64,000 nucleotides of DNA from Rhizaria sp. SCN 62-66 (GCA_001724265.1 MEDY01000085.1:1-64000); one strand, 5' to 3'. Counted from the first letter of the stretch, positions 1,983 to 64,000 are shown. Numbers and translations: made by a program. The notes: generated by a model not told the origin, from the sequence alone.

Positions 1983-3200
1983 TTACATGCGGGCGCGCTT
2001 GCTAGTGTGCTCCACATTAGCTTCATCCCCACTCCCTTCATTGCTATCGCCAACCCTCTTGGCCTCCGCCTAGTCGCTGCCCTTGTGCTCCGTCGCCGCC
2101 GTCTCCTCATCGACCAGCAGCGCCGCGTCGCGCGCGGCCGCGATCCCCCGCATTCCGTCCCGCGCGATCTCGCCCGCCGAGGAGAGCTTGCGGCGCGACG
2201 GCAGTGCGGACGACGCCTGCTCGGCGGTCTCGTCCGCGGCGGCCGGCTGCGTCCAGTGGCGATAGTACCACTGAGGGAAGTGGCAGTACACGTGGGTGTC
2301 AAGCCACGCAAGCGCCTCTGCGGGAACCGACACGGCGGGCGCGTCAAGGGCGGCCATCGCGCTGCCGCCGTTGCGGCGGGCGCGCTTGGCCTTCTTCGTC
2401 TCAGCAGCACCGCCGTCAGCAGCCGCATTGTCTACAGATACAGCGGTAGCAGAAGAGGACGCAGCAGTTGCAGCGACAACGGTGTCGGCGTTTGTGCTGC
2501 ATTGCTCGCCGCCCTCACCCAACGTAGCAACACTGTTGTTGCTGTCGCTGCTGCTGCTATTGCTGTTGTTGATTTTAGGCTCGAGCTCGCGCCTGACCTC
2601 GTCGCTCTCCAGCGCCAGCATCGAGGGCGTGACCGCGAAGCCGTGTTCAAATGCGTAGCGCGCGAGCGAAAAAGCGGCCGGGTCGGCCTGGCGGGCGTGC
2701 CACAGGGCGAGCTGGTCAAAGCGCAGGCGGCGCGTCACCACACCGAGCTGTGAAAAGGCAGACAAAACGCAAAATGGGAAAAATCAAACCAGAAAACAAA
2801 CAGAAATGACTCAGTGAGATCATGATCGTTATGCTAAAACAATAAGACTTCATCAACAATGCAGTTATGCAATCACAAAACAAGTCATTGATAGTTATTG
2901 GTTGCTGGCGAGTGTGAGTCTGTCCTGAGCGTACCTCGTCGAAGTTGGCGGGCATGCCGAGCGCAGTGCGCAGCTGTGTGTGGAACGCCAGCTCACGGAA
3001 CAGGATCTTGAACATATGGGGCTTGACCGAGTGCTTGAGCTCTGGCCCGTGGGCGTCGAACGCGGCGACGAGCTCGTCGCACAGGGCGGCGTTGTTGGGC
3101 ATGATGACGCCGTCGGCAGCGAGCACGTCGCCGTCCTGGCTGTGACCACTCGCAGTCTGAGTCGCAGTCTCTGTCGCAGTCGCAGCGCTTTCAGTGTTCT

Positions 3201-3298
<98 letters not shown>

Positions 3299-4270
3299 GT
3301 TGTTGTTGTTGTTGTTGTGACTGGCGCAGGCGACAGCAGTGCGGCCCATCATCGCGGGCCACGCCAACAGAGCCTCCGAGACCAGCACGCAGTCCGCGCC
3401 CGTGGCCGCGAGACATGCGTCCGCGTCCGCCTTTGTCGCCACCGAGCCGTTCGCGAAGACCGGGATGCGCAGCGCGGCCTTAACGCGGCGGATGATCTCC
3501 CAGTCCGCGAGCGACACGCGTTCCTTGTTCATCTCGCGCGTGCGCCCGTGCAGCGTCAGGATTGAGCACCCCGCAGCCTGGAGCGCATGCGCGAACGCTA
3601 GGGTCTTGGCGCCGGATGGGTCGTCGAGCCGGATCCGGATCTTGCAGGTCACGGGTACCGGCAACGCGTCACGAAGCGCGCGCACGAGCGAGATAACCAG
3701 CGCCGAGTCCTCGAGCAGGTAGGAGCCATAGTTGCCCTTGCGCGCGATGCCCTGCGGGCAGCCGAGGTTGATGTCGACCGCGTGCACCGTCCCCATCGCG
3801 ATGACGCGCCGCGCGGCCTTGATGAGCGTGTCAGCGTCGTCACCCGCAAGTTGCGCGATGATGCCCGTCGCGTCGGATGCGTCGGTCGAGTAGTGGCGCA
3901 GCGGGCAGACGGCGCGGAGGAACGCGCCGGCGTTGATCATCGGCGAGTAGCACAGCGGCACATTATACCGGCGCACTAGGGCGCGGAAAGGGAGCTCCGA
4001 CTGGTGAACCATCGGCGCGCAGGCGTAGCGCGGGGAGCGCAAAATGTCCGTGTAGAGCGCCCAGGCCGCCGCGACGTGCGCGTCGAGCTCGGCTTCCGTT
4101 AGAAAGTGCTCGTTGGTAATTCTACTATTAGCAGAGGGGAGGATGCCGATGGAGGTCGCAGTACGCTGCAGGGAAGCTGGGAGGCACACGCGCGGGCTAC
4201 TGCTATTGCTGCTGCTGCCGATCGCGGTAACAGCGGCGGTGGAGGGCTCAGTGGCGGCGGCGGTGGACAT
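1983..4270 (-). CDS. tRNA-dihydrouridine synthase, DUS1-like (~699 aa after correcting a 1-nt indel, removing one intron and reading one TAG as sense)
   Basis: Motifs APMVHQSELPFR, YSPMI, AQLAGDD, VDINLGCPQGIARKGNYGSYL, PVTCKIR, LTLHGRTRE and ANGSV. Exons 4270-2935 (extra base at ~3297 inside an (AAC)n tract) and 2747-1983. In-frame TAG at 2070-2072, after which the frame continues AEAKRVG...TSKRARM to TAA at 1983-1985. Confidence 0.85.
2748..2934 (-). other. Spliceosomal intron in the DUS1-like gene (187 nt)
   Basis: Minus strand GTACGC...CTTTTCACAG, AT-rich, phase 0, joining NFDE to LGVVTRR. Confidence 0.8.
3203..3318. repeat. (AAC/GTT)n microsatellite, about 38 units, inside the DUS1-like CDS
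   Basis: Run of ttg/gtt on the + strand with a single 'tttg' interruption near 3296-3298. Confidence 0.95.
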
Positions 4271-12185: not shown

Positions 12186-15100
12186 TCAGTACACGATCAC
12201 GAGTACCCAGTTCATGACGACAAGTACCGGGTTAAACACGATGATCGTGCGCACGATGTCGAGAATGCCTCCCCAGGCCGAGCTCTGCAGCTCCCAAGGG
12301 TGGTCGACAGCCAGGGTCTCCTTGAGCGAGCACTTGGCGCGGCACAACGCGCAAGTGTCGTGTTTACCGACGAGTAACCAGCCGCGGAGGCAGAACTCGT
12401 GGAACACATGCCCGCACGGCAGCGCGTACACGGCCTCGGTCGCGGCCGTTGTCACGAGGCCGACGTTCTCCCCGACCGCGGCGGCGTCCTCGTCCTCGTC
12501 CTCCTCGCCGTCGTCGTCGACACGGCCGCGGTGACCGTGGGCGGCATGTGTTCCTCCGTGCGTACCGTGGCGGGGCACAAGGCCGCCGATCTGGCGCGGA
12601 CGGCCCCCGTCGGCGGTGGCCGCGGTGACCAGTGCGCTGTCGCAGATGGCGCACGTGTTGTCCTTCAGCACAGGCTTGCCGCTGCCGTTACCGCTGCCGC
12701 TGCCGTTGCCGTTGTCGCTGTTGGGCGCAAGCGCGGCCGGGAGACCGACCTGCTCAACGACAGAGTTATCGCTGTTATTGTTATTACTAGCGTTGTCGTC
12801 ATCGTCGAAGTCCGAGTCGGAGTCAGAGTCGTCGTGCTGTTGGTGCCACGTCCCCACCCCCCCAGCATCCGCGCTGTCCGCGCCGTCGCCGCCGCTGGCG
12901 CCCGCCGCCGCAGCGGCCGCGGCGGCCGCCCTGCGTCGTCGCATGCGCAATCCCCCGTCCGCGGCGGGCGCGGGCGCGAGGAGTCCGCGGCGCAGGCGGC
13001 GCGGCAGGACACGACGCAGCACCTTGCGGCCGGCGAGCAACGCGCGCGGCGCGTACCCGATCCGCGCAGCGATGGTGTCTGTGACGACGGCGGCGAGGTC
13101 GCGCGAGAGCACGCCGAAGTAGAGCCCGTAGAAGATGAGGTGCAGGCCGACGTCGCCGAGCCAAAGCAGCGACGACCAGGACATCTCGCCCGACGCGGCG
13201 ACGGCGGCGGCGGCGGCGACGTCGGCCGCCGAGGCGTCGGGGGCCAGCGCGGCGTGCGCGAGGGCCGAGGGGCCAAAGGCGAGGGCCGCGAACAGCAGCG
13301 GCAGACCGGAAAGGTGCAGCAGCAGCAGCACCCAGCCGGCGAGGGCGGCGGTGTAGCAGACCTTGAAGGCGCGCAAAAACCACTGATACACGCGGCGCGG
13401 CGTCGTCGCGGCCATCACAGAGGTATCGGTACCAGTGCCCGCCGCGGCCGCAGCAGTGCCAGAAGAGGAGCCAGCGGCGGCAAAGGAGTCTTTCTTATCT
13501 TTGCTATCCTTGTCGTCCTTGTCCTCGTCTTCTGCGCCAAAGTCTTGTTCTTGGATGTTGAGCGCGCTCGACGGCGCGGGTGAGGTGGCCTTGAGGACGA
13601 GTCGCGCTGTGGCGGCTGTGAACGCAGCCCAGGCCAGGAGGAAGCGCCAGTAGTGGAGGTAGACTGCGAACCAGGCGGGGATGACCCATAGCCCCAGCAG
13701 CATCGCGGCGTCGAACGACCGGCGCGCGCGGCGCTTCCACTCCCTTAGCGCCAGCTGCGAGGCGACGAGGACCAGGAGCATGCCGAGGAGAATGCGGCCG
13801 GAGTCGCGCTCCGTCTCGGACTGTCGGTGGAAGTGTCCGCCGTGCGGGACAAGGTTGTCGGCCGACACTGTAAAGTGCGTGTGCGCAGCCGGGTGCGCGT
13901 GGGCAACGCGGCGCACGTTATAGTGCTTGCCCAGCTTCGCCGCAGTGGCCTCAATCGCGGCTGCAATGTCCTCGCCGTCGCCGCTCGTGTCGATCGTGAT
14001 TTCACGCAGGGAAGACACGGGGCGGCCGTCAGCGCCCACGAGCACAGGGACACTGCCGCCAGCCGCAGAGCCAGCGGACACCACAGCACCAGAGCCAGCG
14101 CCAGCGCCAGCGCCAGAGCCAGCGCCAGAGCCAGGGCTACTAGAGATACTGTCGGCGCCCGGGGCGCCGATCTGCTTGCGCTGCTCGCTCTGCTTCTGCT
14201 GGTCACCGCTCTCGGCGCCGCCCTCGAGCTGCCTCTGCGCGGCGATCGTGGTGCCCGGCTTGGGCCACGGGCGGCCCGCCGAGTCGATCTCGTAGTCGTC
14301 GCCGCCCAGAGCGGCCAGCCCAGCCTCGAGCTGCCGCAGCTTCGCGGCGCGTGCCAGCTTTTCGATCGCACTGACGGCGCCAGCGCTAGCGCCGGTCGAT
14401 AGAACGACGGCAGATGAGCCGGCGGAGTCTGCGGTTATGGCGGCCTGGAGCTGCGCCTTGGCAGCGGTGAGCGCGGCGGCGTTGCTGGCGCCGTGGATCA
14501 TCCGGGGGTCGCTGCGCACGTACGTCGGGGCGGCAGCGCCGGCCTTACTCGCGGCAGCCGCGGCAGTCGCGGTCGTCGCGGTCTTGCCAGACTTTGACTG
14601 CGCGTTCCTGGCGGCAGTCTTTTGCGACGCAGCAGCCTTCGCAGAAGCTGCTGCAGGTGGGGGTGGGGGCACTGTTGAGGTGTCATCCGTGGCCAGCAAT
14701 GCTTTAAAGTAAGCCGCTTCCTCAGCCGAGCCGAAGTCCTCCGCAGCTCGCAGCTCATCATTTTCGTCGTCGTCATCGTCGTTGTCGTCGTCGTGAGATT
14801 TGACTGGTGCGGCAGGGCGAGCTTGCGGCTGCGACGGCGGTTGAGAGTGCGCCAGTGAAGTGAAGATGCGGCGCGCACCGTTGCCCCCACCACCACGCTG
14901 TTGCTGTTGTTGTTGCATATGTGACTGCTGCGGGGTAAAGAGCCCATCGTCACTGCCACTGTCAAGATCGATGTCAATGCCCATCGCTCTGTCCATATCA
15001 CGGCGCATATCAGCCATCATTGCGGCCATCATCCCACTAAACGGGTCACTATTACCACCGTCGCCTAACTTATCGCCGCGGTCCATCATGGCGGCAAAGG

Positions 15101-16694
15101 GGTCGTCATTGCGGTCAAGCAGAGATGTGAAAAGTGGGTCACTGCGGTCCATCATCACGCTGTTCATGTCGTTGTTCATGTCGCTCACCATGCGGTCCAT
15201 CATTGAACTCATGCTGCGCATAATCGTGACAGGCTTCATCGGACCCATGGAACGCATGGGGCTCATACGAGGACTCATGGGGATCATAGTCGGCATCATA
15301 ACAGGCAGATCATTCGCATTACCATTGCCGTCGATCAAGCTAACGGCAACACCGCTGTTGTTGATCTCGGTATCGGCGTTGCCGTTGCGGTTGTCGTAGT
15401 CGTTGCTGTTGCCGTTGGCAGAGATGACGTTAATGGTGTTGAAGAGAGGAGCGCCGTCGCCGCCGTTGTTCAGCATGCTAGAACGGACAGTGCGCGTCAT
15501 CGTCCGCCGCGTCACACCCACGCCACCACCACCGTGACCGTGACCGTGGGCGTTGCTTAGACCGCCGCCACCAATTCCGCCGAAGCCGCCGCTGCCGCCG
15601 AGCGCGTTGAGGTCAGTCGCGGTCGAACTGCTGCTGGTCGCGGTGGTCGTCGTCGTGGTGATGGCTGCGCCGGTGACGGGGTCGGTGTACGTGCTCGTGC
15701 GGGTGACGTACGTGGGGGCACCGTGGCCGCTGTCAAAGGACTGTGAGCCGCTGACAAGTGACTGTGGGTCACCGCCGAGAAGAGACTGTGAGCTATCAAA
15801 GCTGCGGACAAGCTCCTCCAGCAGACTCCCCACGTCGACTAAGGGGGTACTTAGACCGGCGTCTGCGTCGCCACTCATGCCACTCACAGTCCGGGTTGCC
15901 TAAGTACTAAACCTGGCGTTTGATAGCGACAGAGGCAGGGCCAGCGACAGCGCCAGAGGCAGCGCGGCGCCGTCGATCGGCGCGACGGGAGCCACGGGCG
16001 CAACGGGGGCAAAAAGCCCGCCTGCTTCGTCGTCGCCGTCATCATCTGTGTGAACATTGTCGTTGTTCCCGTCGTCGTCGGCGGGGGGAGATGGGATGGG
16101 GCCAGGGGCGGGCACCGACAGACGCAGGCCGGCCAAACCGCCGCCGCCGCCGCCGAGGCTGATGCCAATGCCAGTGGCGCCAGCGCGGGGGCGGACGGGC
16201 GCTGATGAGCCAGAGCCAGAGCCAGAGCCAGCGCCAGAGCCTGAGCCGCCAGAGCCGGTGCTAGCGCCTGTGGAGGTGAACATGTCTGTGTCAGCGGCAG
16301 CGGCGGCAGCGGCGAGGGCGGCGCGCTCGGCGCCCGCGGTAAGGCGGGTGCGGCGGCGGCTGTCCGAGTCTGTTACAACAGTTGCGTCACCGCTGTTGGC
16401 GTTAGCGTCGGCGTTGTTGGCGAGAGTGTTGCCTTGTGCGTCGGTGACTGTGAAGGCGGCGTCAAGGACGGCGTCAATGCCGCGGCCCATGCCGGCCAGC
16501 AGCGCGCGGGCGGCCGCGTCGCCGCCAGAGCCGGCATCAGCACCGGCCTGAGACTGAACCTTCGGTGCAGAGTCAACGGAAGAGTCTGTGGCGGTTGAGA
16601 CGGTGGCTGCGACTGTGGCGGCAAAAGCGAGCGCTAATAGCAGCAACATCGCGCGCAGGAGGGCACGGGGCGCAAGAGCGGCGTGCGCAAACAT
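12186..16694 (-). CDS. RNF121/RNF175-like multi-pass membrane RING-H2 E3 ligase with signal peptide and long N-terminal extension (1502 aa with one in-frame TAG)
   Basis: ORFs 15900..16694 and 12186..15887 are in the same frame, separated only by TAG at 15900-15902 plus 4 sense codons. The C-terminal part has LGLWVIPAWF..LHYWRFL, TTPRRVYQWF, FYGLYFGVLSRD and LPCGHVFHEFCLRGWLLVGK.DTC..C...HPWE. Ends in TGA. Confidence 0.85.
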
Positions 16695-25818: not shown

Positions 25819-26967
25819 TTACTTCGGCTGGCCGAGCGTGCCGTTCATCTGCGTAAAGCCGCCCAGCGCGGCAACTATGTCCCCACTGGCTCGCACATAC
25901 GCGCTTTGTGCCGCGTCAACGGCGCCGTCAAACGCATCCGCCGTGGCGCGCGCGCGGGCCGTGGTGGTCTCCACGGCGGCGTCGAGCGCCGAGACGTCCC
26001 ACCCGCGCTCTTCGCGGAGGTCGGCGACCATGGCGGCGATGCCCGAGAGCACCATGTCGCGCCCGTGGCGCTCGGCGATGACGACGGCGCGGCGACGGGC
26101 CTCCTCGGCGCGCGGCAGCGCGTACTCAAGCCGTTGCAGGTCGGCCTCAAGCTGCAGCACCGTGCGGTCCTGTGCAGGGCCCGGCGCCGAGGGGTTCTGC
26201 GCGTGGTCGGCAGCGGCCTTGGCGCGCGCGGCGGCTACGTCCTGCGGCGTGACGCGAAGTTTGGCCGCGTGCGTGATGTTGGTGAGCGCGTGATACTCGA
26301 CGACCTCGGCGCGGAAGCGCGCGTAGAGGCGCGCCTTGGCGAGGAAATCGGTCTTGCCGTCGCGCTCGTCGTGGAACAGCGTGCGCGCATCGGCCTCGGG
26401 CGGAAAAAATAGCGCGAGCGCGGCCTCGTAGTGCGGCTGCATGTCAACGCGCGCGAAGTAGAGCGTGAGCCACATGCGCAGCTGCGTGGCGACGCAGAAG
26501 AAGGGCGAGGTGAAGGTGCGCAGCCGCAGGGTAGCGGGCACCATGCACTCCATGTACGTCATGATATCGGCCACGGCCACGTCGCGCAGCTTCGTCGGGT
26601 TGCGCAAGAAGTTGAAGAGCATCGCGGAGGAGAAGCAGCAGGACATACGCTCCTGGTCCTCGGGCAGCGCCTCCTGCAGCGCGGCGCGGAGCAGCTTGTG
26701 CTTGTCGAACGCGAAGGCGTCGATGACGCGGTAGATGGAGAAGTGGCAGGCGTATTCGAGGATCCACATCAGCGCCACGGGCCGCGCCGCGACGGGCGCG
26801 TGCACGGCCTGCTACAGGTGGTACGTCAGCATCTCGGGCGCAAGAAACGACGCTGGGGGCAGCGCCGCAACCATCGCGGACATGTTAGCCGGCGGGGCCG
26901 CGCCGGACGCGGCCGCGGAAGCGGCGGCCGCGGCGGCAGAGGCTGAGGCGGAAGAGGACGATGACAT
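25819..26967 (-). CDS. Uncharacterised protein (~382 aa with one in-frame TAG)
   Basis: ATG at 26967 (MSSSSSASAS...EMLTYHL), TAG at 26812-26814, then QAVHAPV... continues in frame into ORF 25819..26805. Codon bias is coding-like on both sides. Ends in TAA. Confidence 0.7.
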
Positions 26968-49289: not shown

Positions 49290-52200
49290 TCACGAATCGA
49301 CACGTACCTTTTTAACATCTGAAAGACGCTCCAGGAGCGTATTGCGCCGCTTCTGCGCCTTCAACAGCCGCTCGCGCATCTGTGCTGCCGCCGCCTCAGC
49401 CGCTTCGACCTCATTCCGCATCGCCGTCGGCGTTAACGCGAGCTGTGCATCCGCATCAACAGTCATTGGCACAGCCACAGCCACTGACGCGGACGCAGAC
49501 GCTGAAGCTGAAGCTGACGCTGACGCTGACGCCGACGCCCCGGTCACTGCCGGCCTGGGATAAAGCGCAGCGCGGTGCGCGGCCAGTGCGGCCGTGGCGC
49601 GGCGCATCTCGAGCGCGTACGCGACCACGCGATCGGCGTTCGCCGCAGCCGCCGCGGCCTCGACGGCGGCCCACTGATCGCGCAACCGCGCCTGCTTCGA
49701 CTGCGACTGCAACTGCGGCTGTAACTGAGATCTCTGCTCAGCGGCCGTAGAAGCGCTGTCCTGGAGCGACAACAGGTGACCGTCAGCAAATGCAGCGCGG
49801 CACAGCAGCGCGCGCCCCGTCTCTGTGCCCACATAGAGCCCGCCGCCTTCGCTGTGGCGCTCCGAGTCACTTGCACAGGAGCTATCGCTGGCCGTGCTTG
49901 GTGACGCGCTAGCAGCTTTAATTGCGTGCATATCTTGCCGCGCAACCTCGCGCTCGAAGGCCATCTTCGCGGCCTGAACCGCACGCCGCGCCGCAGTCTC
50001 CGCAGCGTTGGCAGCGGCGTCGTCAAACCGCTCAGCAAGGCCTATTGTGTTCCCTCTCGCCTCGGCCTCGGCAGCAATCAGCGCCTGCTCTGCGTCCAAT
50101 GCGTCAGCGGTCCGCGCCGCCTCAGCATCAACCGTGGCGGCTGCGGCCTCTGCTGCGGCCGCGGCAGCTTCTGCAACTGCAGTCAGGCCGCACAACGCCT
50201 CAATCTTCTGCAAATGCGCGCGCGCCGCTGCGGTCTGCGCAGGAATCACCCGCTCGCCGACATCACGGCTCAGAGCGCCGGAGAAGCTGGCGTTGGCATC
50301 ACCAGCGCTGGTGGTCAGCAACACAGGGTCGAGAGCAGTGCGCTCAACTTCGTGGCCCCACTCCTCGAGCACCAGGCCCGCGCACTCCTCCTCTGCCGCC
50401 GCTCCGGCGCGTCCTCCAGCGGCGCCAAGCTGCGCGTCCGCGGCGTCCGCGGTGACGTCGGCGTTGGGGCTCCACTGAGCGCGCGCGTTGGGAGCGAGCG
50501 CGGCGGCGGTGTCTGCGTCGGAAAGCGGCATCCCCAACTGTGTGCGGCGGCGCGCTGCCACGACGGCGTGCATCGTGGGCAGCAGCGTCAAATTGCGCGC
50601 GTTGTGCTGCGCACCTGCCTCTAGCGGAGTCCCGCGCTCACAGTTGGCAATGTTCCGATGCAGTCGCGCGTGTGAAAACGAAAACGAATCCCACCGCGGC
50701 TCCACTGGCCGCGCGCCGGTGCCAGCAACGGCAGACCGCGACGCCACAGCGCGCGTGCGCTTCGCAAGCCTGGAGAGCGTGACAGCAAGCGCGGATGACC
50801 GCTCAGGGTTCTCCCCACGTGCGCGCAACTGTTCGTCGCGGCGCAGCAACACAGAGATACGCGCGCTGAGTTCTACTGGTGGCAAACCCGTAGTGGCGGC
50901 CTCAATCGCGCCCGCAACGCCACGTGCAGCAACCGCAGTGTGCACAGCCTGAAACGTCGCCGTGCTTGTGTATGGACTCTCCAGCATGTGTTTCGGCCCA
51001 CGTGCGCCAGTAATACTATGGCTACTCCAGTCATCACTATCAGAAACGACACTGTTGTCGTCCTCGTCATCGTCGTGATTGCTAGACGGCGCAAGCATAT
51101 TCATGGTGTGCAACAAGCCTTGAAGAAAAGGCGAAAACAGCCGAGCGCGTCTCGATGCGCGGGCACTCGCACCTGTGTTCGCGCGCAAGTCCTCGTCTTG
51201 ATCAGCGTTGTCTGTGCGTTGTTCATCGATTCCACTGCAATCACTGACGCGGCCTAGGCCAACAAATACAACGTAGCGCAGGAAAGAAAACAATCGGAGC
51301 TCGGCCGCGTCCGCACTCGACGCAGCTAGTTCGTGTTGCTCAAGCAGTACGTTGCTGTGCACAACGTCCGCATCTGTTGCGGTACAAACAGATGTTGCTG
51401 CAGCAGCCACGGTCGCAACGTCATTATGCCCGCTCTCTGGCATGATTCGCGGGCTATAACGCATGTCAACAGCGCGGAAGGCCGTGCGCAGGCTGGAAAG
51501 TCCGTCAGGATCATCGTCTTGAACAAATTGTGGCGTTGAAGCCGCTGTCAGCAGCGCTATCGCTCGCCGCCGCAGTACAGCCACCGCAGCGTGCGCTACA
51601 GAAACGTCACTCGCACCCTTCGCAGCTGGGCGGCGCAGCACGCGGCGCAGCTCAGCGAGCGCTGCGGGCGCGAACAGGCGCGCAAGCAACGTCAGCAGCG
51701 CGGCCTCGTGGGCGCTAAACGCAGCCGTAACTGCGCTATGTCCGGCGCGCGCCCGCCACCTGCGCGCCGCAGCGTGGTTGGGCGGTGCTGCAAAAGCGCC
51801 GAGTCGAGTGTCAAAAGGCGTGGCAGTATAGACGAAGTTGGATGTCGCACGACCCAACGCTACAGCGTCACTGTGGAGCGAGTTGTTCCAAGCGCGTTCA
51901 GGCAGCCACACACGCCACGCAAAGCTGTGGCAGTAGCGCAACACCGTCAGCGCGTGCGCGCCGCGAGCGGATAGCGGTGTCGCGGGCCCCGGTACAGTAC
52001 TCGATGTACCACCGACCAGCGGCAACCACCGCGGCACTGCGCCGCTCGCGCGGTCACCCGGCGTCCACGCCTGAACCACGACCGGGTGAGTCGCCTCGCG
52101 AGTCGAGGCTGTCACAGTTGGCGCTGTCGGAAGTAACAAGGCAGTGGACACACCATTGATGACGCTCGGCTTGTCTGTGACAAGTCGCGCCGCCTCCTGG

Positions 52201-55200
52201 ACGCCATACGGCCAGGACGTTGTGGCGCGGTGAGCCAGAGCAGTGGCCACGGGCGCTGCAAGAGCTCGCGCGGCCAACAATGCGTGTTGCGAGACGGCTG
52301 AGAATATAGGGTGCGACTGGGCAAGAAATCGCAGCGCGTGTGCCTCCGACGCCGCCGCAGTGATGATCCGTAGACTGTTGTTGTTGTGTACAAACTTCTC
52401 TAAGTCATCCTCGCGCGGGCCGCTCGAGGCCCCGCGTCCGCGCCAGCCCATTACGCCGGCAACGACAGCTTCACAGTCACGTAACGTCCCCTCCTCAATG
52501 TGTAGATTGCTCGCAGACGCACTAGCTGTTCCTGCTGCATTTGTATCAACACTACTTGTTGCGAAGCCATCAGAACTTGCAGTTACGACAGCGCGGGCCG
52601 CGGGCATCACGATGCGCTTCGCAGCGAGTGCGTTGGCGGAAAATGACGAGTCGCTCGACGAAAGCAGCAAGGCGGGCATGGGTGGCATTGGCGGGGGATT
52701 GTGTAGCGGGTGCTGCGGCGGCAGCACAGTGGGCCCAAAGCTGGCTGCCAGAAGCTGCTCAGCAGCGCCCCAGCCTGCAGCAGCGCCCACGCTCCCTGCA
52801 ACGCGATCAGTATCGCCGCCACATGCGTAGATGTCCATGAACGCGCGCGTCGCCCGAGCTGCATCGTTATCGACGCCCTTCGCACCCACGTTGCTGTTCG
52901 GTGCGGGTACCAGCACATGAACAAACGAAAGCGCAACCATGCGTCCAAAGCTCGCCAGATCCGGCTGCAACTCGCCTGATTCAGTCGCAGATGTGTAAAA
53001 AGAAACGCTCGCACTTGCTCTCGCGTCTGCAGAAGGGAACGCTAAGGTTTCGGTCGCCATATTGACCGTCTGCTGCTCGAGCATACAGCGGCGCATGTTA
53101 AGGTCGCCGGCAAGCGCCTCGAGTGCGACTGCACGGAGCCCACGTGAAAGGGCATCAGCATGTTTGTCCTGCGCTACAGAGGGACCCGGGATCGCACTCG
53201 GCGCAACCAGAGGCGCCGTCGCCGCGAGCGCCTCTGCCACGCGCCCTTCGAGCACTTTGGGTGCCGTGAGTGGCGGCTCTGGTCCATCCGCAGCGCGTGC
53301 GGCTGCGGCGACGCGCGCGTGGCGAGACACTGCTTGCAGCGTCCGCAAAACAGGCTCAGCCGCCAGCTCGGCGTTGCGGGTAAGCGCGGACGATACACGC
53401 GCTAGCGCGGCGTCACACCCTGCAGCGGTGCCCTCGTTGTCACGATCAGCGCGGCTGCTTGTGCTGCTACTCGAACTGTTGTTACTGGTGCTGCTGCTGC
53501 TCCCGTCATTGTCCAAGTATTGATGGCAGAACGCCGCAACGTAGGACAGTGCAGCATTTGCACTCAAACGGCTCGCGTCCGTCGCCCGCGCGCGCTCATG
53601 CCCGCGCTCTGCGTGGCTCTGGTCCGGGCCGCGTTGTTGACTTTGCTGTTGAATGTGCCTCGAATGTTGATGCGGTTGCATACCCTGTGGCGCCGAAAGC
53701 GAGTCGACGTCTGCGAACTGCATGTGCGCGAACGCGTGCGTAACCGGGGGCAGGTCCACGCCCGCAAGCGCTGCGTTGCCACCGCTGGGCGCACGCGCGT
53801 GTTGTGTGGCAGACAGCGCAACCTACGCAGAGTTAACAGGCCGCTGCAGCCTCGGGGTCAAAATGCGCGATAGCGCTGCTTTAGCTGCAGTTTCGGCAAT
53901 CTCGCGTTGTCGGGCGTCAAACTGCGCGCGCGAGCTCGCGCCCGTGACTACATTGTCGTGAATGCTGTCGTTATCCGGGGCAGCATTGGCAGGGTTGTTG
54001 CCTTGATCGTTACGTAGCGCGTACTTTGGGTCCACACCCCTCGGGCCGCCATTTTTGCCGTGGGTTTGCTTCTGTTGCTGTTGTTGTTGCTGTTGCTGCC
54101 GTTGATGCTGTGTCGGCTTCTCGCGTTCACGCAACGCAGCGCCTTCAGCTGCAGCCGTGTGGGCCACAAACGCGACGTCGTCTGCAGTAAACCCCGTCAC
54201 AACGGCGTGCGTAGCTTCACATTCGGCGCGCACAGTCGCAAGTTCCTCAGCGACTAGAGCGGCCACGGTGGCGTCTTCGCGCGCACGAATGGCGGATACA
54301 GCCCGTGAGCAACTTAAGAAGTCGTTCGCAACTACGGCGTCGGCCTCTGCGGCGACAGGCGCAGCGGCGGCCGCAGTAGCAATGCGCAGCGTCGCGTCGG
54401 CCTGCAGTGCGTGCGATGCTGCCGCTGCAATTGCGGGGAACAGCGCCGACGCAGGCGCAACGCCAAAGAAGGTCAGCGCACCGCCGCCTGCGCGCGCGTG
54501 CGCTGCTGCAGCCGCGGCAGCCGCCGGGGGCAGTTCATTTGCAGATACACGCGAGTCGGTAAAGTCGTGCTGCATGTAGCCCAACGCTGCGTTGGCGGGG
54601 CTAAAGACGGCGTCGAGTGGGGTCACTGCGCCGTACGCTGAAAACAACGGACCGCCGCCGTTGGCAACAGTGTTAGTCACTGCGTCCCCGCAGGGACAAT
54701 AAGGTACAGGCAAACTCGCAGCGAACGCTCCGGCGGTGACTGCATTTGGTGCGTCAGTGGTGGCGCCTGTGGTGAGATGCGCCATATGAACATCGAAGTC
54801 GCGCCCGTCAGTGAGCGCGTGTGACCACGCCGCTGCATAGAGCTGGCGCTGCTGCTGAACTAACGCGGCGCGCTCATCTTTCACGCGCGGTGCAAACCCT
54901 TGCTGGGACACCGGGTGCTGCTGCTTTGGTTGCAACTACTGATGGGGTGGCTGTTGTTGTTGCTGTGAGGCAGGCGCATATCCATTCGCAATCTCAAGCA
55001 ATTCGACCAGCAACGTCGGCACAGGCAGCAAGAACGGCTATTTTCCTGGAGATGAAGTCGCAGTACTCCTTGAATCCACAGTCTTAATCAAACCTCTGCT
55101 GTCACGACTGCTGTGCTCATCGTCGTCGCCGTCTTCGGCCCACGCGCGCATGACCGCCATGCGCACATTGCTGCCAATGCCCTGCGCCTCCGCGGACGGT

Positions 55201-57377
55201 AGCCCCAGCCGCACTGCCTGCGCCCGCGCCTCGCTCTCAGCCCGCGCAGCCTCCTGTTGCAGCTGCGGGTCCCGCAAGCGCGCCTCGGTGCGCACCTGCT
55301 GCGCCTTGACGGCCTCCGCCACGCCCGGCACAGGCTGGCGCGAAGGTGCCTTGTTCGCCGCCTTGAGCGCTGCATCAAGCGCGGCGCCTGCGAACGCGAG
55401 CTGCAGCTCGGGCGCGCGCAGCACCTCGGCCCACGGCGCGTACACGGTCACCGTCGCGCTGTCGCGGGTTGTGGGCGCGGGAACGCATGGACACGAGCAC
55501 GCCATCGGCCTTGTGGCAGCAGCAGCAACGGCGACAGCGGCAGCAGCAGTGGAGACACCGGCGGCCTCATCGTCGCCGCTCGTTAAGGACGTCAAAGCAG
55601 TCGCAGGCGCTGGTAGGGGGCTTGTGGAGTCGCACCAAAAGTGTTTGCAGCGCGACGAATACAGCACATTGCCGTCCTCGCGTCCGCACTGCAAACAGCC
55701 CGTGGGCAGCAGACCCGCGTCGGGCGCGCCCGCCGCAGCGGCGGCAGCGGGGGCGGGCTCTAACGCGCCGCTGCCAGCGCCGGCTGTACGCGGGCGCGAC
55801 GGTGCGTAAGGCAACGGGTGTGCCGCGAGTGTGAGCCACTCGAGCTGCGCCGCGCGCGTGTCCGCCGCCTCGGCGTCGCGCTCCTCGGCGCGGGCCTGCG
55901 CGCCCTCCTGCGGCGTCAGCGGCTACTGCTGCTGCGCGGCCGCGCGCGCAAGCCGGCGGCTGCGCCGCCCCTCTGCCGCGCGCCGCGCTGCCCACGCGTC
56001 CGCGCACGCCTGCGCCGCGCCGCCCGAGTGCCGCAGCGCGCGCTGCACGGCAACTGCGGCGGCAGCGCACGCGTCCTCGTTCGCTGCGCGCGCGGCGGCC
56101 TCCGCGAAGCGCAGCAGAGAGTCGTACGCGCTCGTGAGCAGCAGCCCAGTGCCGTTGTCCGTTTTGTCGCCGAGCCCGGCGCCTTGCCCCGCCACCGGTA
56201 CGTCCAGCGTGTGCCCGTGGGGGTCTTCGTTGGCGTCAACGCGTGCCTCGCGCCGAGCCCGGGCGGCGTCTGCCGCGCGTTCGTCAAACATCCCGATTGC
56301 GCGCGCATCGTGGTCGTCGCTGTCGTTCTTGTTGCCGTTGTCTTCGCCGTCGCCGGGCGGAGCCAAAAGGCGCTGCGCAAGCGCAGCGGCTGCGGCGGCG
56401 CGCGCGAGGGCCCAGTAGCGGGCGAACGCGGTCGCCGCGCGCGCCCAGGGCCGCGCCACAACCTGCATGCCCCAGTGGGCCTTGTAGCCGTCGTAGGCCG
56501 CCGCCAGCACGTCCGCGGTCATAGCGCCCGTCGCCGGCTCAGCCCCCGCGGCCGACGCCCCCCGCGGCGCCGGCGCCAGGTGTTCCGGCAGCAGCGGCGG
56601 CGGCGTGGCAAGCGACGTGAGCAGGGAAAGCGGCTGGTGCTGAAGTTGGCTGAGGCCGTCCAAACCCGCGCCCGCGCCAGCGCCCAAGCCTCCGCCGCCC
56701 TTGCTCGCACCAGAGTCCGCAGTGAGCCCCGCTGCGGCCGGTGCCCGGCGGCGGGCGGGCGCGGCGGTGGCCACAAACGCTGCGGCGGTGCGGTAAGCGA
56801 GCGGCATCTCTGACATGCTGCGCGCGCGCGCGGCGAGGTCGGGGTCGCCACGGTGGGTCAGTAACGCGAAGAGCGTCGTTAGGAAGCGCGGCGACAGGCG
56901 CAGGCCCGGCAGGGGGGCGAAGCCCACGGGCGGCGGCAGCGGCGGCGCGGGCGGCGGCAGCAGCGGCGGCGGCACGTGGCCCGGCCCCTCGGCCGTGGCG
57001 TGGCCCGTGAGGTCCAGGAAGGGGTTTATCGGCGGCAACAGGCCGTCGTGCAGGCGGGACAGCACCTGCACCTGCGCCTGCGCCGCGGATGTGTCTGCAT
57101 GCGCGCCTGTAGATTCGCGAAACGCGGCTAATGCGGCCTGAGACGGTGTGGGCGCGCGGAGTGTTGGGTTAGGCTCTGGGTGAGGGCCCCAGCCCGCTAA
57201 CGCGGCGGAGAGCTCGGCTGGGTCAGACAGCGGCAGGCGTTCACGTTGGGTCACAGCGACATGAATAGGGGGTTGCTGCGCCAGCGGCTCCCTCTGCCCA
57301 GTTGATACGCATAGGGGTACCGGGTGTACCTACTGTTGTCGCTTTGGTGCATCTCTATCTGAGTCACGGCGACTCAT
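49290..57377 (-). CDS. Giant uncharacterised protein (2695 aa) containing five in-frame TAG codons
   Basis: ATG at 57377 (MSRRDSDRD...) to TGA at 49290-49292 in one frame. The only interruptions are TAG at 57330, 55923, 55038, 54936 and 53823. I read all inter-ORF gaps codon by codon and found no TAA or TGA. Confidence 0.78.
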
Positions 57378-57976: not shown

Positions 57977-59422
57977 ATGGGCCGCAAGCGCTTCGCACAG
58001 AACGCCCCGACAACGGCCGCCTCGGCCACCGCCACAGACGCCGCTGAACCGCTCCCGCTGGAGCCGTTCCTGGCTGCGTACGTGGACGAGATCGCGCAGT
58101 GCCAGCCGCTGGTGCGCGAGTCTGCCGCAGTGCGTGCGCAGCTCGAGCAGACGGTCGCCGCGAGCGTGGGCATGCTGCGCGCGGAGGGCGCGGCCGAGGT
58201 TGCGCTGTGCCGCGCGCCGGGCTGCCAGACGTGCTCTTGGGCGTCGACGCGCAAGGCATGCTCCATGTGCGCCGCCCCGCTCAAAGACAGCAACAACAAC
58301 ACGAGTATCAACCCCGCCAAGGACGCCGGCGCCGGCAAGAACAAGACTGCTACCGCGGTGCCTGTCGCTGCGAGTGCGACTGCGGCTGCTGCGACCGTGG
58401 CCTCGCAGATCCCCGTGTTTATCCCCATCGCCGACGACGCGGCGGGCGCGGCCGCGGCAACGATGCACATCGAGGTCTGCAGTCTCTGCTCGCCGCTGTG
58501 CGCGGCCTACCTCGTCGACGGCGCCGGGCTGGCGGCCTCGGACCCGGCCTCGCGCCGCCGCGGGCTCGCCGCCTTCCCGCCAACCACGCTGCACCTTCTG
58601 TTCCACGCCTCGGCGCTCGCGGCCGCTCTCTACGCCTTCCTCGCCACGGACCTCCCCGCGCTCGCGCCCCCGCTGGCCGACGGCGGGGCTGCAGCGAGCG
58701 CGAGTTTGCTGCTGCAGCTGATGACGAACCCGTTGTGCTGCGCGCTGGCGCTGTCGGCTGCGGCGTGGTTTGTCGCCGTCATGCGCGACACGCTCTGGCT
58801 CATCCGCGGCACGCTGCCCTCGCGCGTGCTGCTGGCCAACGTCGCCGCCACGCTCGCCGCCGCCGCGCAGCCGATGCACTGCGTCGTTGCCGCCGCCGCG
58901 CTCGCCGCCGCGGCGGCTGCGGGCAAGCTCGACCTGCTCGCCGAGAGCTGCACTGGCGCCGAAGCTGCTCTCACCGACGCCGCGACTACTGTCCCAGCGA
59001 CCGCGGCTGTGGCGGAGGGCGGCTTTGCGGCGCAGGTGCTGGGCCGGCTGCTGGGTGCCGCCGCGACGACCGCTACCGCGACCGTGACGGAGCCAGGCGC
59101 GTGTCTCGCCGCGTCGTCGCCGCTGGCGCAGCTGCCGCTGTTGACACTGCTGCCGCTGCTGCTCGTGCTCGTCGACAACACGGCGCTGGCGCTGCGGCCG
59201 CCGCGCGCGCCGTCGCGCACCGTCACGGCCGCGGCGCCCGCGCTGGCGGCGCTGGTGGCCGTTGCTGTGGGGCTGTGCTATCCGGGCGAGTCGACCGCCG
59301 TGGCCGTCGCCGTCGCGGGCGCCTGTGCCGTCATCGTGTGCGACGTCGTGCGCGGCTGGCTCGACGCGCTTGCACGCCGCTGCGCCAAGGAGAAGGTCCG
59401 CAAGACACCGAGGAAGCTCTGA
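57977..59422 (+). CDS. Uncharacterised membrane protein with Cys-cluster N-terminal region (~481 aa)
   Basis: Starts MGRKRFAQ. Contains CRAPGCQTC...CSMC and CSLCSPLC motifs, several hydrophobic segments and a basic C-tail. Ends in TGA. Confidence 0.65.
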   Translation: MGRKRFAQNAPTTAASATATDAAEPLPLEPFLAAYVDEIAQCQPLVRESAAVRAQLEQTVAASVGMLRAEGAAEVALCRAPGCQTCSWASTRKACSMCAAPLKDSNNNTSINPAKDAGAGKNKTATAVPVAASATAAAATVASQIPVFIPIADDAAGAAAATMHIEVCSLCSPLCAAYLVDGAGLAASDPASRRRGLAAFPPTTLHLLFHASALAAALYAFLATDLPALAPPLADGGAAASASLLLQLMTNPLCCALALSAAAWFVAVMRDTLWLIRGTLPSRVLLANVAATLAAAAQPMHCVVAAAALAAAAAAGKLDLLAESCTGAEAALTDAATTVPATAAVAEGGFAAQVLGRLLGAAATTATATVTEPGACLAASSPLAQLPLLTLLPLLLVLVDNTALALRPPRAPSRTVTAAAPALAALVAVAVGLCYPGESTAVAVAVAGACAVIVCDVVRGWLDALARRCAKEKVRKTPRKL

Positions 59423-59769
59423 GCAAGAGGCGAACGCTTAGTAGACAGAGGGAGTTTGGTTACATAGTAGACTTTGTTGTGTTCACTGTGGAAAGAACAT
59501 CGATGTTCTTCCGCTAATGAATTTAATGGGTGTGTTTGACAAAAAAATGAAATATTGTGTATTATTATGTTTTATTAATAAGCCTACGTATAAATTAACG
59601 CAGATTAATCAACACAGAAGCAGTTTCGGTGATGAGTTATACCTCAGCTGAGTGTGTAAACTACGTGTGATGTAATATTCGAGACACGACATATTAGAAC
59701 ACTTAATACTTAGACAACTAAAACAAAAACGAAAAAGCATCAAAACATTCCATGACGTCTTGAAACAAC

Positions 59770-62700
59770 TTATGTGGACTCATTCTTCTGTTTCCCCCGG
59801 TAGTTCTGAAGCACTGCGAACGCTTGCTCGCGCGCGAACTGCATCATCTCCGGCGACGCGCCGGCCAGTCGCGCGCACGCCAGCGCGGCGTTTTGTGCAG
59901 CCGGCTCCCAGCGCGGGTTGTCGCGCCGCAGCAACAGCATCACGCACGAGCCAACGGCGTGCAACACACCAACGCCCCGCAGAGGCCCCGTTCGCTGAGC
60001 GGCCGAGGCAGACGCAGCCTTTCCCGTTGCAGCGCCGCCTGCAGCGTCGACGATAGCACTGAGCTCCGACTCCCACTCCTTGAGCTTGTCCTTCTTGGCT
60101 GCGCCTTCCAAGAAGCTCCCCCGCACCTCGCACGCCGATAGCACAGCGCGTGTTGAGGTCAGAACGGCAGCGCGGACAAACGCAGACGGCGCGGTCGAGA
60201 AGTGCTTGCTCCAGACAGCCTGTGAAACCATCGGCGGCGGCAACTGTGCAATTTTAACCACGACTTGCGCGAAGTTGCCCGCAGTTTGCGGCGACCACGA
60301 GTTAAGCACGAGCGACACAACGCCGGCCACGCCAGAGCCTGATGCAAGCGTCACGGCGTCATGAATGTAGTCCTCGCTGCGGGCTGATAACTTACATAGC
60401 TCCACGGCGCGCGCTGCTGCCAAGGCATGCGCGATGCCCGTGGGCAGCGCGCCTGCGGGTGCCGGAAGCGCGGACCCGGGGGCCAAACCCAGGTGCTCCG
60501 ACGTTATGTAGCCGGTCGCGCGCTCCCATTGCTCCGCAAAGCCCCTGTTCATAGGCACCGTTTTCCCCCAGCTCGTAACTGCCGTGTTTGATGCCGCCTT
60601 GCGCGCATTGGGGTGCGCCGCTAGGGCGGCAGCCTTGGCCGAGACGGGCCCCGGTGAAGGGAACTGGTCGAGCTCGCGCGAGGCCTGCTGCGGGTCGTGC
60701 TGACACAGTACCGCGACGATGCGCATACAGTGGTCGCCGAGCTAGATAAGCTGATCCAGGCGCGTCACAACCTCTTGCTGAGTACTGCGCTTTGAAAACG
60801 AATCCCTCGCATTGTTGCCATCTGACAGTTGGCTGTTCTCCGGCATTGCAGCAACCGCAATAGAAGCGATTCCCGTGCCAAGCATAAGTCCAATGCCATT
60901 GCGCGCTAGCAGATCATCGCGCACAGCGAGATTTCCTGTTGCAAGCCGCGAGAGCAAAGCTGCAATGCACATCATGAGTTGCAGGTAGAGTCCGGAGCAC
61001 GTAACACGGAATGAAGTCGTTCCTGTCAGTGAGGGCGCCAACAGCGCGAAAAGTGCCCATGGCAATGCAGGTGCCGCTGTGACAATGCGTGTTGCTGACT
61101 CGACGCCTGCGGCAACGGCGAACGCCATCAACAGGTGAAGCGCTTCATGAAGCAGCTTCATGTGACTGTTCAGGACACCGAAAGCCGGCGCAGGTGTCAG
61201 GGGGAGTACTAGCGTCATATTCCAGCGGTCAAAGACAGGTACACTCAGCACGTAGAAACAAGCACGCAACACAATGCCAGTGACGATCTCTATAGAACCC
61301 CCCTTAATGGGGTTGCCATCATCATTATCGGCAACGAGGGCGCCGTCCTCTGGCTCATCGGGCATGCTGGGCGCGGCCAGGCGAGTGCAGAGTGCGGTGT
61401 TGGCAGCGAGATTAGAAAGCACCTGAACCACGCTGCAGTGCAGCATGGATATTGACTCCGAGGTGGCGACGCGAAGCTGTTTGCCAATCGACACGCTCTT
61501 CATAGCCTGGAACTGGACGCCATGATTGGCAAGGTAACTTTTCACGCTCTTGCCCCACAAGTCATCGATGAAAGGCGCGGCAACAAAGCCGGCGAACGTA
61601 CTCGCCATTTGTATGGCAATAAGCTGCTTTGCATTTACTAAGGCTTGGGCGACATCACGCACCTGCGATAGGATCTGAACCCGTTCAACCAGATCTTGTG
61701 GCAGAGTCTGTTCCACTGTGGCACCCTTACCTCCCTTGGACCCAGTCTTTTTGTGCGAAAGTTCATTCAACTTCTTGCGCTCGCGCATGAGCTGCTCGTT
61801 AGCAGCCACAAACTCGCGATCGTGGCGCGCGAATTCGCGATATGCACTGGCAACTGCGTGCACAGTCAGTGAGAGTTGAATTTCAGCTGCGGTGCTATTT
61901 GAAAATCGCACGCCAACGCCGAAGCCGAACTCGGGCCCCGCAGCTGAGTACTCGGCACCATCGGTTGGGCTGACAGAAAAGTTGTCGTCCACTGCAACGC
62001 GAAGCGTCTTGAGCAGCGCCGCGAGCAGACTCGCTCCCGGCTGCCAGCCATTTGGCGTCAGTGCCTTGACGCGCTCGTCGCTCGTGAGGTTCACAGTCAT
62101 GTCAAGCAGGTGCTGCGTTGCGCCACGGCGCACGAGCCGCTGGCCCGAGGGCAGGACGGACGCCGCGTCGACGGGGCGGTGCTCAGCGGTGCTGTAGGGA
62201 GTCGGAGGCCTCTTACTCGCAATGGTGCGCAGTATCTCCCGTGTGTACATGTCCTCCGCGAGTGCCGTGCTCGTTGCCATCATCAAGATTTCCAGCAGAT
62301 CTTCTTGCCCCGAACCTGCGCGCATGTCAGCAGCAGACGCCGCTGGCATGACCCTGTTCACGGCGCTGTCAAAGATCTTCGCACGCACCACACTTGACTC
62401 CAGAACGTCACACAGAAAGCCGGTGGCAATCTCGAGCGTCACCGCGATTGCGCTGAGCCATGACTCAGTGGGTGCGTGCGTCGCGGCAGCAGCGACTGTC
62501 ATCATAGCATCCTGAATTTGCGCAGCTTCTCTAGCGACAATATCACTGGTGTCACCGTCGTTGTATCTGTCCATGTTACTCAGATTGACCTCGCCGTGAG
62601 GCGGGGAGTTGCCGTGAGCCTGCATGTTCACACACTGCATAATCACGCTCTCGAGCTGCAACAGCTGGTGCACGAGACGGGCGACGATTCTTACGACGCC

Positions 62701-64000
62701 ACAATGCAACATGTTTGCGGCGGTGGTTGAGCGCAGTGGCACGAGAGAGCGGAGTACGATGAGAATGCGGGCCAGGGCTACCCAGTGCGCGTCTACGTCT
62801 TGTGCTCGTTGGCGTCCGTCAGAGTCGATCTCGGAGAGACGGCAATCATAGTTGATGCTGTTACCATGACCCTTCATCAACTCCTGTTTGGCGCACTTGC
62901 GCGCATCGTTTCGGATGGCCATAATCGACTTAATGGCGCTGGGCCCCGGCAGCAGTGTCACAGTGTATATCAACGCGTGCATCAGCGTGCGAATCCCTTT
63001 CCGCCCGGCAAAGTTGTACTGTTTATACAAGCTCGCTGACGTGATGCAACGCATGACCGTTGATAGTGGTGTTAGTGTCGCAGCCTCTTTGCGCCACGCC
63101 CATGTCTGCAGCAAGCGTAGCGGGCCCGATGCAATACGTGGTGCACTAAAAAGCGAGGATGTGTACTTCACATTGTCGGCCTCTGTAGCGGTGAGGAGTT
63201 CGAGCACGTCTTTGCTTAAATCAGCACTTGTGTCGTCATTTTTATTTTCTCCACCCAGTCCAAGGTGGAAGAAAACGAGGTTCCGTAGTGATGCACCAGG
63301 AAGCTGGGCATAGACACCCAAAAAACAGCGTGCAGCCAACAGGTCATCTGATACGCGCTGATCGACTTCAGACGCCACGCGAGGGAATAAGGACCTCAAA
63401 CTGACGAGCTCATCCACGGGCACCTACTCCAGCGCAGCACGCGCAGCAACGGCACTGTCGCTGTTGCCACCCACGCTCGCGCCGCGACGGCCCTTGCGTG
63501 CGCCGCCCAAACTGGAGTGGTGCGGGATAATGTCGGCAATCGGGTCTGCACCGGACGTTTGTGAGCGCGAAGCGTTAGACAGGGTCAAATCAACGAATGC
63601 TAGAGCCTGCAATGACAACTGCGCCATTGACATCTCCGAATCGTGGTGCATCTCTTGAAAGATGATATCGAGGTCCTGATCATCAAAGTCCTCACTGTCG
63701 CCAAACCTAGCGGCCCAGGCGTGCTGTAGCGCAGCGTCGCTGGCGCCGAAGAGCTTGTCAAAGCCGTCGTCGTCGTCGTACCTGTCGCCAAAGGTGCCGT
63801 TCTTGCCGACAAGGCGTTCCTACTTGGATTTGAACGTTACTTTTTCCGTCCGAGCACGGGTGTCGCCAAGGGTAGCAGTGTCCTCACCGTCGTTAAAGTC
63901 GATGTCATTGATGTCACGCGTGTTGCTGCCATGAACGCAATTGGTTGAGCTGTTAGACTTGTTGTTATTATCAGTACCATAGATGCGCCGCGCTCGACGG
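59770..64000 (-). CDS. Large helical/ARM-like repeat protein, 5'-partial (>1400 aa) with three in-frame TAG codons; C-terminus weakly reminiscent of TTC12
   Basis: One frame is open from the window edge to TAA at 59770-59772 except for TAG at 63820, 63424 and 60742, which join ORFs 63424..63651, 60742..63423 and 59770..60726. ARM-like segments include VLSNLAAN, TAGNFAQ and QNAALACARLA. Confidence 0.72.

Follow-up and report, generated by a model that had tools for sequence, protein, structure and literature searches.

In eukaryotes, the codons UAA and UAG almost always change meaning together. The DNA considered here is a stretch of 64,000 nucleotides (nt) from Rhizaria sp. SCN 62-66 (GCA_001724265.1, MEDY01000085.1:1-64000), called the window and always meant at its full length. 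It has eleven in-frame TAG codons in five minus-strand genes, and UAG alone probably acts as a sense codon in it. Changes limited to UAG are described in the relevant sections of two papers for the rhizarian exLh (Leu), Iotanema spirale (Gln), Scotinosphaera (Ser), Protocruzia tuzeti (Gln), and phyllopharyngean ciliates (Leu and Gln) (PMC11687900, PMC5304391). In the account of I. spirale, UAA is the predominant terminator, and UAG codons near gene ends are judged to be sense codons that are followed by a true UAA or UGA (PMC5304391). For exLh, a member of the Sainouroidea, the same source gives 384 in-frame UAG codons in 71 genes, or about 5 per gene, and 56 UAA and 15 UGA gene ends (PMC5304391). 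A suppressor tRNA(CUA) is reported from two ciliate genomes with the UAG-only change (PMC11687900).

The window is best read in the same way. UAG is probably translated and is not a terminator, while UAA and UGA are the stops, and a rough probability of 0.8 is given to this reading. It had been proposed by a first-pass annotation made from the bare sequence, and it is supported by the alignment to a homologous protein, by TAG codons in a related organism, by constraint downstream of the TAGs, by other assemblies, and by the gene ends.

All eleven TAGs named by the first-pass annotation (2070, 15900, 26812, 53823, 54936, 55038, 55923, 57330, 60742, 63424, and 63820) were verified in the frame of long minus-strand open reading frames (ORFs), and both their coordinates and their frame were reproduced. 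Twenty coding pieces from 19 genes contain 11 TAG, 0 TAA, and 0 TGA in 16,308 in-frame codons. This agrees with the earlier claim that no frame-preserving break is TAA or TGA, and the count is partly circular since the ORFs are bounded by these two codons. No further in-frame TAG beyond the eleven was found in the 20 coding pieces. The other two frames of the same pieces hold 45 and 50 TAG, 22 and 99 TAA, and 231 and 258 TGA. The gene ends (n = 20) comprise 14 TAA, 6 TGA, and no TAG, and the former tally was obtained again; 19 of them are 13 TAA and 6 TGA, and the gene cut at the window start adds a TAA at 191-193. In PABP and AsnRS, the terminal TAA lies at most 6 residues past the end of the last Pfam domain match.

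A non-circular test is provided by the length of open frame that follows a stop. After the 19 TAA or TGA ends, the next in-frame stop of any kind occurs within 2-33 codons (median 13). The frame after the 11 TAGs remains open for 28-1510 codons, and nine of them, with 131-1510 open codons, are above the control maximum (Mann-Whitney p = 5.6e-6). The case for an internal codon is good at eight TAGs, namely 15900, 53823, 54936, 55038, 55923, 60742, 63424, and 63820. The G+C content (GC) of the 84 nt after each TAG is 0.54-0.83 at all 11 sites. The base 3′ of the TAGs is G in six cases, C in four, and T in one, and no common readthrough motif is present.

TAG is rare in coding sequence, at 0.07% of codons, and 15 of the 20 coding pieces are devoid of it. 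The GC at third codon positions (GC3) is 0.66-0.89 in TAG-bearing genes and 0.78-0.92 in TAG-free genes (Mann-Whitney p = 0.009), and the eight genes with the highest GC3 carry no TAG. The lower GC3 of TAG-bearing genes is as expected for a rare, non-preferred sense codon. TAA makes up about 70% of the stops despite a GC of about 62% and a GC3 near 0.9, which is unusual for so GC-rich a genome.

The strongest evidence for a translated TAG comes from the gene at the far end of the window. Its product is termed P0002, and the protein homologue of P0002 is termed P0004. L001 is a stretch from a relative, and L002 is a stretch that extends the window end. The gene and its TAGs are as follows.

59770..64000, minus strand: TPR and helical-repeat gene encoding P0002, with three TAGs; it runs off the window.
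60742..60744, minus strand: TAG, residue 1086 of P0002; the best supported sense TAG.
63424..63426, minus strand: TAG, residue 192 of P0002; within the BLASTP alignment to P0004.
63820..63822, minus strand: TAG, residue 60 of P0002; between the TPR domain and the protein body.

Among 5.8 billion proteins, P0004 is the only homologue of P0002, with 43% identity. It aligns without a gap over residue 1086 (TAG 60742), with D opposite, and L001 has GCA (Ala) at this place. An invariant block, HCMRIVA-LCQHDPQQASREL, follows just downstream of this TAG. Opposite TAG 63424, P0004 has V adjoining a gap, and 893 open codons lie downstream. The third TAG of the gene is bracketed by the two parts of the protein. 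L002 overlaps the window end by 154 nt and adds 5.5 kb, and the N-terminal TPR part taken from it is 54% identical to residues 16-155 of P0004. The TPR part and the body of P0002 share one frame, and since both are homologous to one continuous protein, P0004, all three TAGs of P0002 are internal.

L001 is 57% identical to P0002 over the last 400 residues, terminates in TAA, and has in-frame TAGs of its own. One, at 604-606, is in the conserved C-terminal region, where the window has AAG (Lys) and P0004 has Q. A second exonic TAG is in the first exon of a tandem paralogue; a shared VWDFWD motif follows it after 7 codons and the 5′ splice site after 15. The positions of the L001 TAGs differ from those of the window gene. 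Between the window and L001, identity at codon positions 1, 2, and 3 is 0.75, 0.78, and 0.49 downstream of TAG 60742, and 0.72, 0.79, and 0.48 over the 197 codons downstream of both TAGs. Positions 1 and 2 are more conserved than position 3, which shows that purifying selection acts in both lineages on the part of the protein encoded past the TAGs.

A codon-usage likelihood model trained on high-GC3 genes is powerless for low-GC3 genes, and it scores the homology-proven coding stretch upstream of 60742 as non-coding. Position-specific base composition was used in its place. An AlphaFold model of the C-terminal part of P0002 (single sequence, TAG read as Q) has a mean predicted local distance difference test score of 40 and is unusable.

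Several further features of this family were observed. The first exon of P0002 is a ‘small Cys-rich gene’ upstream (L002 3970-5677), which is joined through a 181-nt intron (L002 4556-4736). From exon coordinates, the full gene is estimated at about 1,900 codons, and its product runs from a Cys-rich N-terminus through a TPR domain to a long helical body. In L001 1-2919, one P0002-like gene ends (TAA) and a second begins behind it, represented by its first exon and the start of its TPR part; the two are tandem paralogues. The intron of the second L001 copy contains TAG TAG, and the homologous intron in L001 starts with GTAAGT. The family so far consists of P0004, L001, and the window organism. 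The metagenome scan for relatives yielded L001 and L002 only, and the scans of genome contigs for relatives gave no match.

A giant ORF, whose product is termed P0001, carries the largest number of TAGs.

49290..57377, minus strand: giant ORF of 2695 codons with five TAGs; it ends in TGA.
55923..55925, minus strand: TAG, residue 490 of P0001; preceded by CAG CAG CAG.
55038..55040, minus strand: TAG, residue 785 of P0001; frame kept.
54936..54938, minus strand: TAG, residue 819 of P0001; in a Gln-rich tract, CAT CAG TAG TTG CAA.
53823..53825, minus strand: TAG, residue 1190 of P0001; 370 open codons upstream and 1510 downstream.
57330..57332, minus strand: TAG, 16 codons past the first ATG of the giant ORF; ambiguous.

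TAG 55923 has 468 open codons upstream and 294 downstream, a local GC of 0.84, and more C than G at codon position 2 on both sides. TAG 54936 has 370 open codons downstream. At TAG 53823 the GC is 0.58 before and 0.71 after the site. The local GC at TAG 55038 is 0.51, which is the lowest in the giant ORF and above the 0.29-0.45 of introns and spacers. At codon position 2, every segment of the giant ORF has 0.38-0.42 C versus 0.15-0.21 G, and reference coding frames have 0.34 versus 0.18. This relation is reversed in antisense frames, and the plus-strand ORFs opposite the giant ORF give Arg/Gly/Ser/Cys-rich sequence. An antisense-frame artefact is rejected, as the segments show the coding-strand signature at position 2. 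The 171 codons from TAG 57330 to the next ATG score as coding (+40 bits), and a start upstream of this TAG is favored for that reason; the 15 codons before the TAG look non-coding.

The TAGs are also present in DNA from other samples. Contigs of four runs were compared with window 44001-64000, which holds eight TAGs, and seven of the eight are bridged by the listed contigs without a difference at the site. Contigs of runs X2 and X3 match the window at 53823, 54936, 55038, and 57330, and a contig spanning 52715-54060 covers 53823. Contigs of X4, from a different study dated 2025, ten years later, match at 54936, 55038, 57330, 60742, 63424, and 63820. The X4 contig over 60579-64000 has only two differences in 3.4 kb, at 62346 and 63599. 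Assembly error is excluded because contigs from other samples, and from a separate study, carry identical letters at these sites; the first-pass annotation had itself raised assembly or base-calling error as grounds for doubt.

The remaining three genes have one TAG each. The RING-finger gene product is termed P0003.

12186..16694, minus strand: RING-finger membrane protein gene encoding P0003, with one TAG; it ends in TGA.
15900..15902, minus strand: TAG, residue 359 of P0003 and codon 265 from the first ATG; judged on sequence statistics.
25819..26967, minus strand: gene with one TAG near its start; it ends in TAA.
26812..26814, minus strand: TAG, 52 codons past the first ATG of the preceding gene; ambiguous.
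1983..4270, minus strand: dihydrouridine synthase (DUS) gene with an intron at 2751-2934, an apparent frameshift in (CAA)n, and one TAG near its end.
2070..2072, minus strand: TAG, 28 codons before the DUS TAA; ambiguous, either sense or a true stop.

Upstream of TAG 15900, 264 codons score as coding and open with a hydrophobic N-terminal stretch that, by eye, resembles a signal peptide. Downstream, 1237 open codons end in the RING domain, and the GC across the site is 0.67 and 0.63. An ATG lies 15 codons downstream of TAG 26812, and this TAG may be in the 5′ untranslated region (UTR). A full HMMER search with gene 25819-26967 found its own fragment and two distant matches, which start at query residue 116 or later and do not reach the TAG. 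After TAG 2070 the GC is 0.60, and it drops to 0.29 only past the TAA at 1983. In public protein collections, the giant ORF and gene 25819-26967 are represented only by the TAG-cut fragments P0005, P0008, P0009, and P0010.

The DUS gene has an irregularity of its own. Its frame shifts inside an (AAC)6-A-(CAA)n microsatellite at window 3200-3310 on the minus strand. The frame of the Dus domain ends at a TGA at 3200, and the downstream coding part, 2935-3348, is in another frame. The change of frame could reflect a misassembled repeat, a genuine frameshift, or a short intron that went unrecognized.

Four introns were recognized, at window 23098-23323, 530-697, and 2751-2934, and at L002 4556-4736. 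All four start with GTACG, end with YAG, and are 168-226 nt long, and the GC is 0.38 and 0.45 in the two that were measured. One more TAG in frame, the twelfth, is not a codon: it occupies 23098-23100, where it closes the dynein light chain intron as its 3′ splice site, in frame with exon 2. The TAG sites were scanned for GT-AG pairs of 3n length with at least two of an intron-like 5′ site, a pyrimidine tract, and low GC. No such candidate was found at nine of the 11 sites, including 15900, 54936, and 55038. Poor candidates were obtained only at 57330 and 63820, and the latter has a GC of 0.53-0.57, unlike the known introns. Around the TAGs the local GC is 0.51-0.84, and none of the sites shows an AT-rich spacer or a dip like that of an intron.

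The identity of the inserted amino acid is less clear. Four of the 11 TAGs touch a Gln codon; an average residue does so in 6% of cases and Gln in 27%, which gives a likelihood ratio of about 21 for Gln over the next best residue across the 11 sites. Examples are CAG CAG CAG TAG at 55923 and CAT CAG TAG at 54936. Mutation of CAG to TAG would leave the same pattern of Gln neighbors regardless of what TAG means. UAG as Gln is weakly favored, at about even odds, and by the present estimate Glu, Lys, Leu, or another residue share the rest.

A number of observations weigh against a translated UAG or against its reading as Gln. The residues opposite the TAGs are D/A (60742), V (63424), and K/Q (L001:604), and these three columns reach no consensus; at the eight secure sites only two TAGs touch a Gln codon, and the likelihood ratio falls to 2.6. 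Homology covers only the three TAGs of P0002 and the two of L001. A search for homologues of the giant ORF in the ‘near’ and ‘shorter’ length classes gave nothing beyond the fragments that gene callers had made of the window itself by ending at TAGs. The case for the TAG of the RING gene consists of sequence statistics. Three of the 11 TAGs (2070, 26812, and 57330), all near gene ends or starts, are ambiguous. The first-pass annotation had placed every TAG between coding-like stretches with no intron signal; these three are not demonstrably internal. The 28 codons after TAG 2070 are inside the control range of 2-33, and this TAG could be the true DUS stop, which would make UAG dual. At TAG 57330, the motif CAG TAG|GTA might mark the 3′ end of an intron, as the TAG at 23098 does. 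The absence of TAG from 20 gene ends has a probability of 0.012 if the TAG share is 20%, and of 0.12 at a share of 10%, and hence is not unusual in the latter case. Nonsense changes in GC3-rich genes favor TAG through CAG to TAG; because of this bias the 11:0:0 ratio alone is weaker than it looks, and the other arguments are unaffected. The X4 material is the same strain sampled again and is no evolutionary replicate. The tables of X2 and X3 are identical and may represent a single data set, and TAG 55923 is outside the contig pieces listed. In the RNA run X8, no contig among those listed lies over any TAG, with only short pieces in the giant gene, a result that is no evidence either way on TAG in mRNA. 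No tRNA gene was found in the window, L001, and L002 (72.6 kb in total).

Several other explanations of the TAGs were considered. Stop codons with a double meaning exist elsewhere, such as UAA in Blastocrithidia and all three stops in Condylostoma, and UAG in the window could likewise be context-dependent, or a leaky stop with a natural suppressor, read as sense inside genes and as a stop near some 3′ ends. The position of TAG 2070 fits this, as does the rarity of TAG, its occurrence in weakly biased genes, and its absence from the eight genes of highest GC3, which is what would be expected of a costly, partly terminating codon. However, none of the 20 gene ends has TAG as its first stop, unless DUS does, and in DUS the GC falls only after the TAA. 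With up to five TAGs per gene, partial readthrough would compound to a very low yield, and the TAGs share no readthrough motif; a dual UAG is therefore judged unlikely. Programmed readthrough usually involves one site near the C-terminus in a defined context. This too does not describe the window, where the contexts differ and nine of the 11 TAGs are followed by 131-1510 open codons, and it is rejected.

It is also conceivable that UAG never meets the ribosome, either because hidden frame-preserving introns remove it or because the mRNA is edited, for example from U to C to give CAG. The organism has introns, one of which ends in an in-frame TAG; 57330 and 63820 have weak 3n candidates, the former with its splice-like motif; and no X8 contig among those listed spans a TAG. 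The homologue alignments at 60742 and L001:604 are gap-free and show no insertion, and the GC around the TAGs is exon-like and above that of the two introns measured; the four introns seen also have a distinct start and size. Most TAG sites lack any candidate, and the intron reading is rejected. Nuclear mRNA editing on such a scale has, to our knowledge, no precedent, and a UAG that escapes translation by either route is very improbable. The TAGs might instead be nonsense mutations in decaying genes, ends of separate genes, or errors of assembly or base calling. A TAG-only pattern could be produced by decay, since CAG to TAG is the commonest route to a stop in GC3-rich genes; the apparent DUS frameshift in (CAA)n shows that the assembly is imperfect; and public gene callers split these genes at the TAGs. 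Decay is opposed by the lack of any frameshift, TAA, or TGA in 2695 + 1409 codons, by purifying selection downstream of the TAGs in two lineages, and by a relative with TAGs elsewhere in the same family, while error is opposed by the recurrence of the same letters in another study. Separate genes ending in TAG are rejected, as long open frames follow the TAGs and no intergenic dip in GC occurs: measured spacers beside TAG genes fall to 0.31-0.45 in 150-nt windows, while the minimum of the giant ORF is 0.507. Five pieces would share one frame by chance with a probability of about (1/3)^4, and TAG is missing from 20 of 20 gene ends. This group of explanations is scarcely credible. An artefact of one strand was considered as well. 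The first-pass annotation had cautioned that all TAGs are in minus-strand genes and in poorly conserved segments. The former is true and a weak coincidence, because minus-strand genes make up 59% of codons and include the four lowest-GC3 genes (0.59^5 = 0.07 for five genes); the latter does not apply to TAG 60742, which adjoins the invariant block. A strand-specific artefact is rejected on the weakness of this coincidence and on the presence of the TAGs in contigs of other samples.

If UAG is indeed translated, cytoplasmic ribosomes of the window organism and of at least one related species would read it as an amino acid, and termination would occur only at UAA (about 70% of ends) and UGA. By analogy with such codes elsewhere, as outlined in sections of PMC11687900 and PMC5304391, decoding would involve a tRNA with a CUA anticodon, unable to read UAA, and an altered eRF1 whose recognition of UAG is lost or weakened. 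The retention of UAA as a stop would be explained by the inability of a CUA-anticodon tRNA to read it.

A more tentative proposal, which may well be wrong, is that the window documents an early stage of UAG capture in a eukaryotic lineage not sampled before, of which two or more species live in engineered wastewater systems. In this proposal, UAG would have been purged from all terminators, leaving UAA dominant in spite of the high GC, and sparsely re-introduced (0.07%), mainly in fast-evolving genes of weak codon bias. If true, the lineage would offer an intermediate in nature on which the codon-capture and ambiguous-intermediate models could be set against each other, and UAG might stand for an amino acid other than the Gln, Leu, and Ser known so far.

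The window as a whole has a GC of about 62%, and both of its strands carry eukaryotic genes of an ordinary kind, among them those for ETF-alpha, dihydrouridine synthase, Vps18, AsnRS, a LIM protein, and PABP, as well as dynein light chain, kinase, prefoldin, WD40 protein, and ankyrin-HDAC genes. There were no Rfam matches. The window stretch recurs in bioreactor, wastewater, and activated-sludge metagenomes from several studies. Clusters that resemble the ankyrin-HDAC architecture have Chlorophyta, Oomycota, and Bacillariophyta as their commonest phyla, which offers no more than a lead to the taxon, and the Atlas look-alikes of AsnRS are uninformative. A poly(A) metatranscriptome contig from run X8 matches the ankyrin-HDAC gene at window 45916-46337; over about 420 nt the two differ at 36 positions, and among those listed many are spaced by three bases. 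Activated sludge seems to harbor a related species, whose gene is perhaps expressed there. Three in-frame TAGs occur within 90 codons upstream of the AsnRS ORF (window 9698-9967), at a density typical of non-coding sequence. They are most likely part of a 5′ UTR or spacer and not sense codons.

The change proposed here bears on wider questions. With every separate UAG-only lineage, it can be tested whether a tRNA with a CUA anticodon allows UAG to drift by itself, with UAA retained as the safe stop. A GC-rich genome with dominant TAA, rare TAG in genes of weak bias, and at least two related species with the trait would let the order of events be traced. Gene callers that apply the standard code split these genes at the TAGs, and the proteins of the organism are consequently truncated in metagenome catalogues. 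No report of UAG reassignment in a GC-rich wastewater eukaryote was found in a full-text search, with supplements outside its reach.

When compared with the described systems, the window organism is a further case of the already known UAG-only reassignment. Its notable features are the GC-rich genome, the very low frequency of TAG, and at least two related species with in-frame TAGs. Programmed stop-codon readthrough resembles it in that a stop is decoded and the same frame continues. In contrast, the window has up to five sites per gene, which lie hundreds of codons before the end and have no context in common, and it has no TAG terminators. As in the I. spirale code, so far as its source describes it, UAG alone is reassigned and UAA predominates, and the two code tables would be identical if TAG is Gln here. 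The window differs from I. spirale in its GC of about 62%, its spliceosomal introns, and its mitochondrial-type ETF, and TAG is far rarer in it (11 in 16,308 codons). The phyllopharyngean ciliates, Protocruzia tuzeti, and Scotinosphaera, as covered in the cited sections, are alike in having an independent UAG-only change with UAA kept as a stop. However, the window genome is not of the ciliate type, as it has a single contig of more than 150 kb, about 62% GC, and genes with introns on both strands. The rhizarian exLh, in the figures given for it, shares in-frame stops that are all UAG and gene ends that are only UAA or UGA, at 56 and 15 compared with 14 and 6 in the window. Whereas exLh has about 5 UAG per gene, 15 of the 20 window coding pieces have none, and Leu is not favored in the window by the aligned residues or by the Gln-rich contexts.

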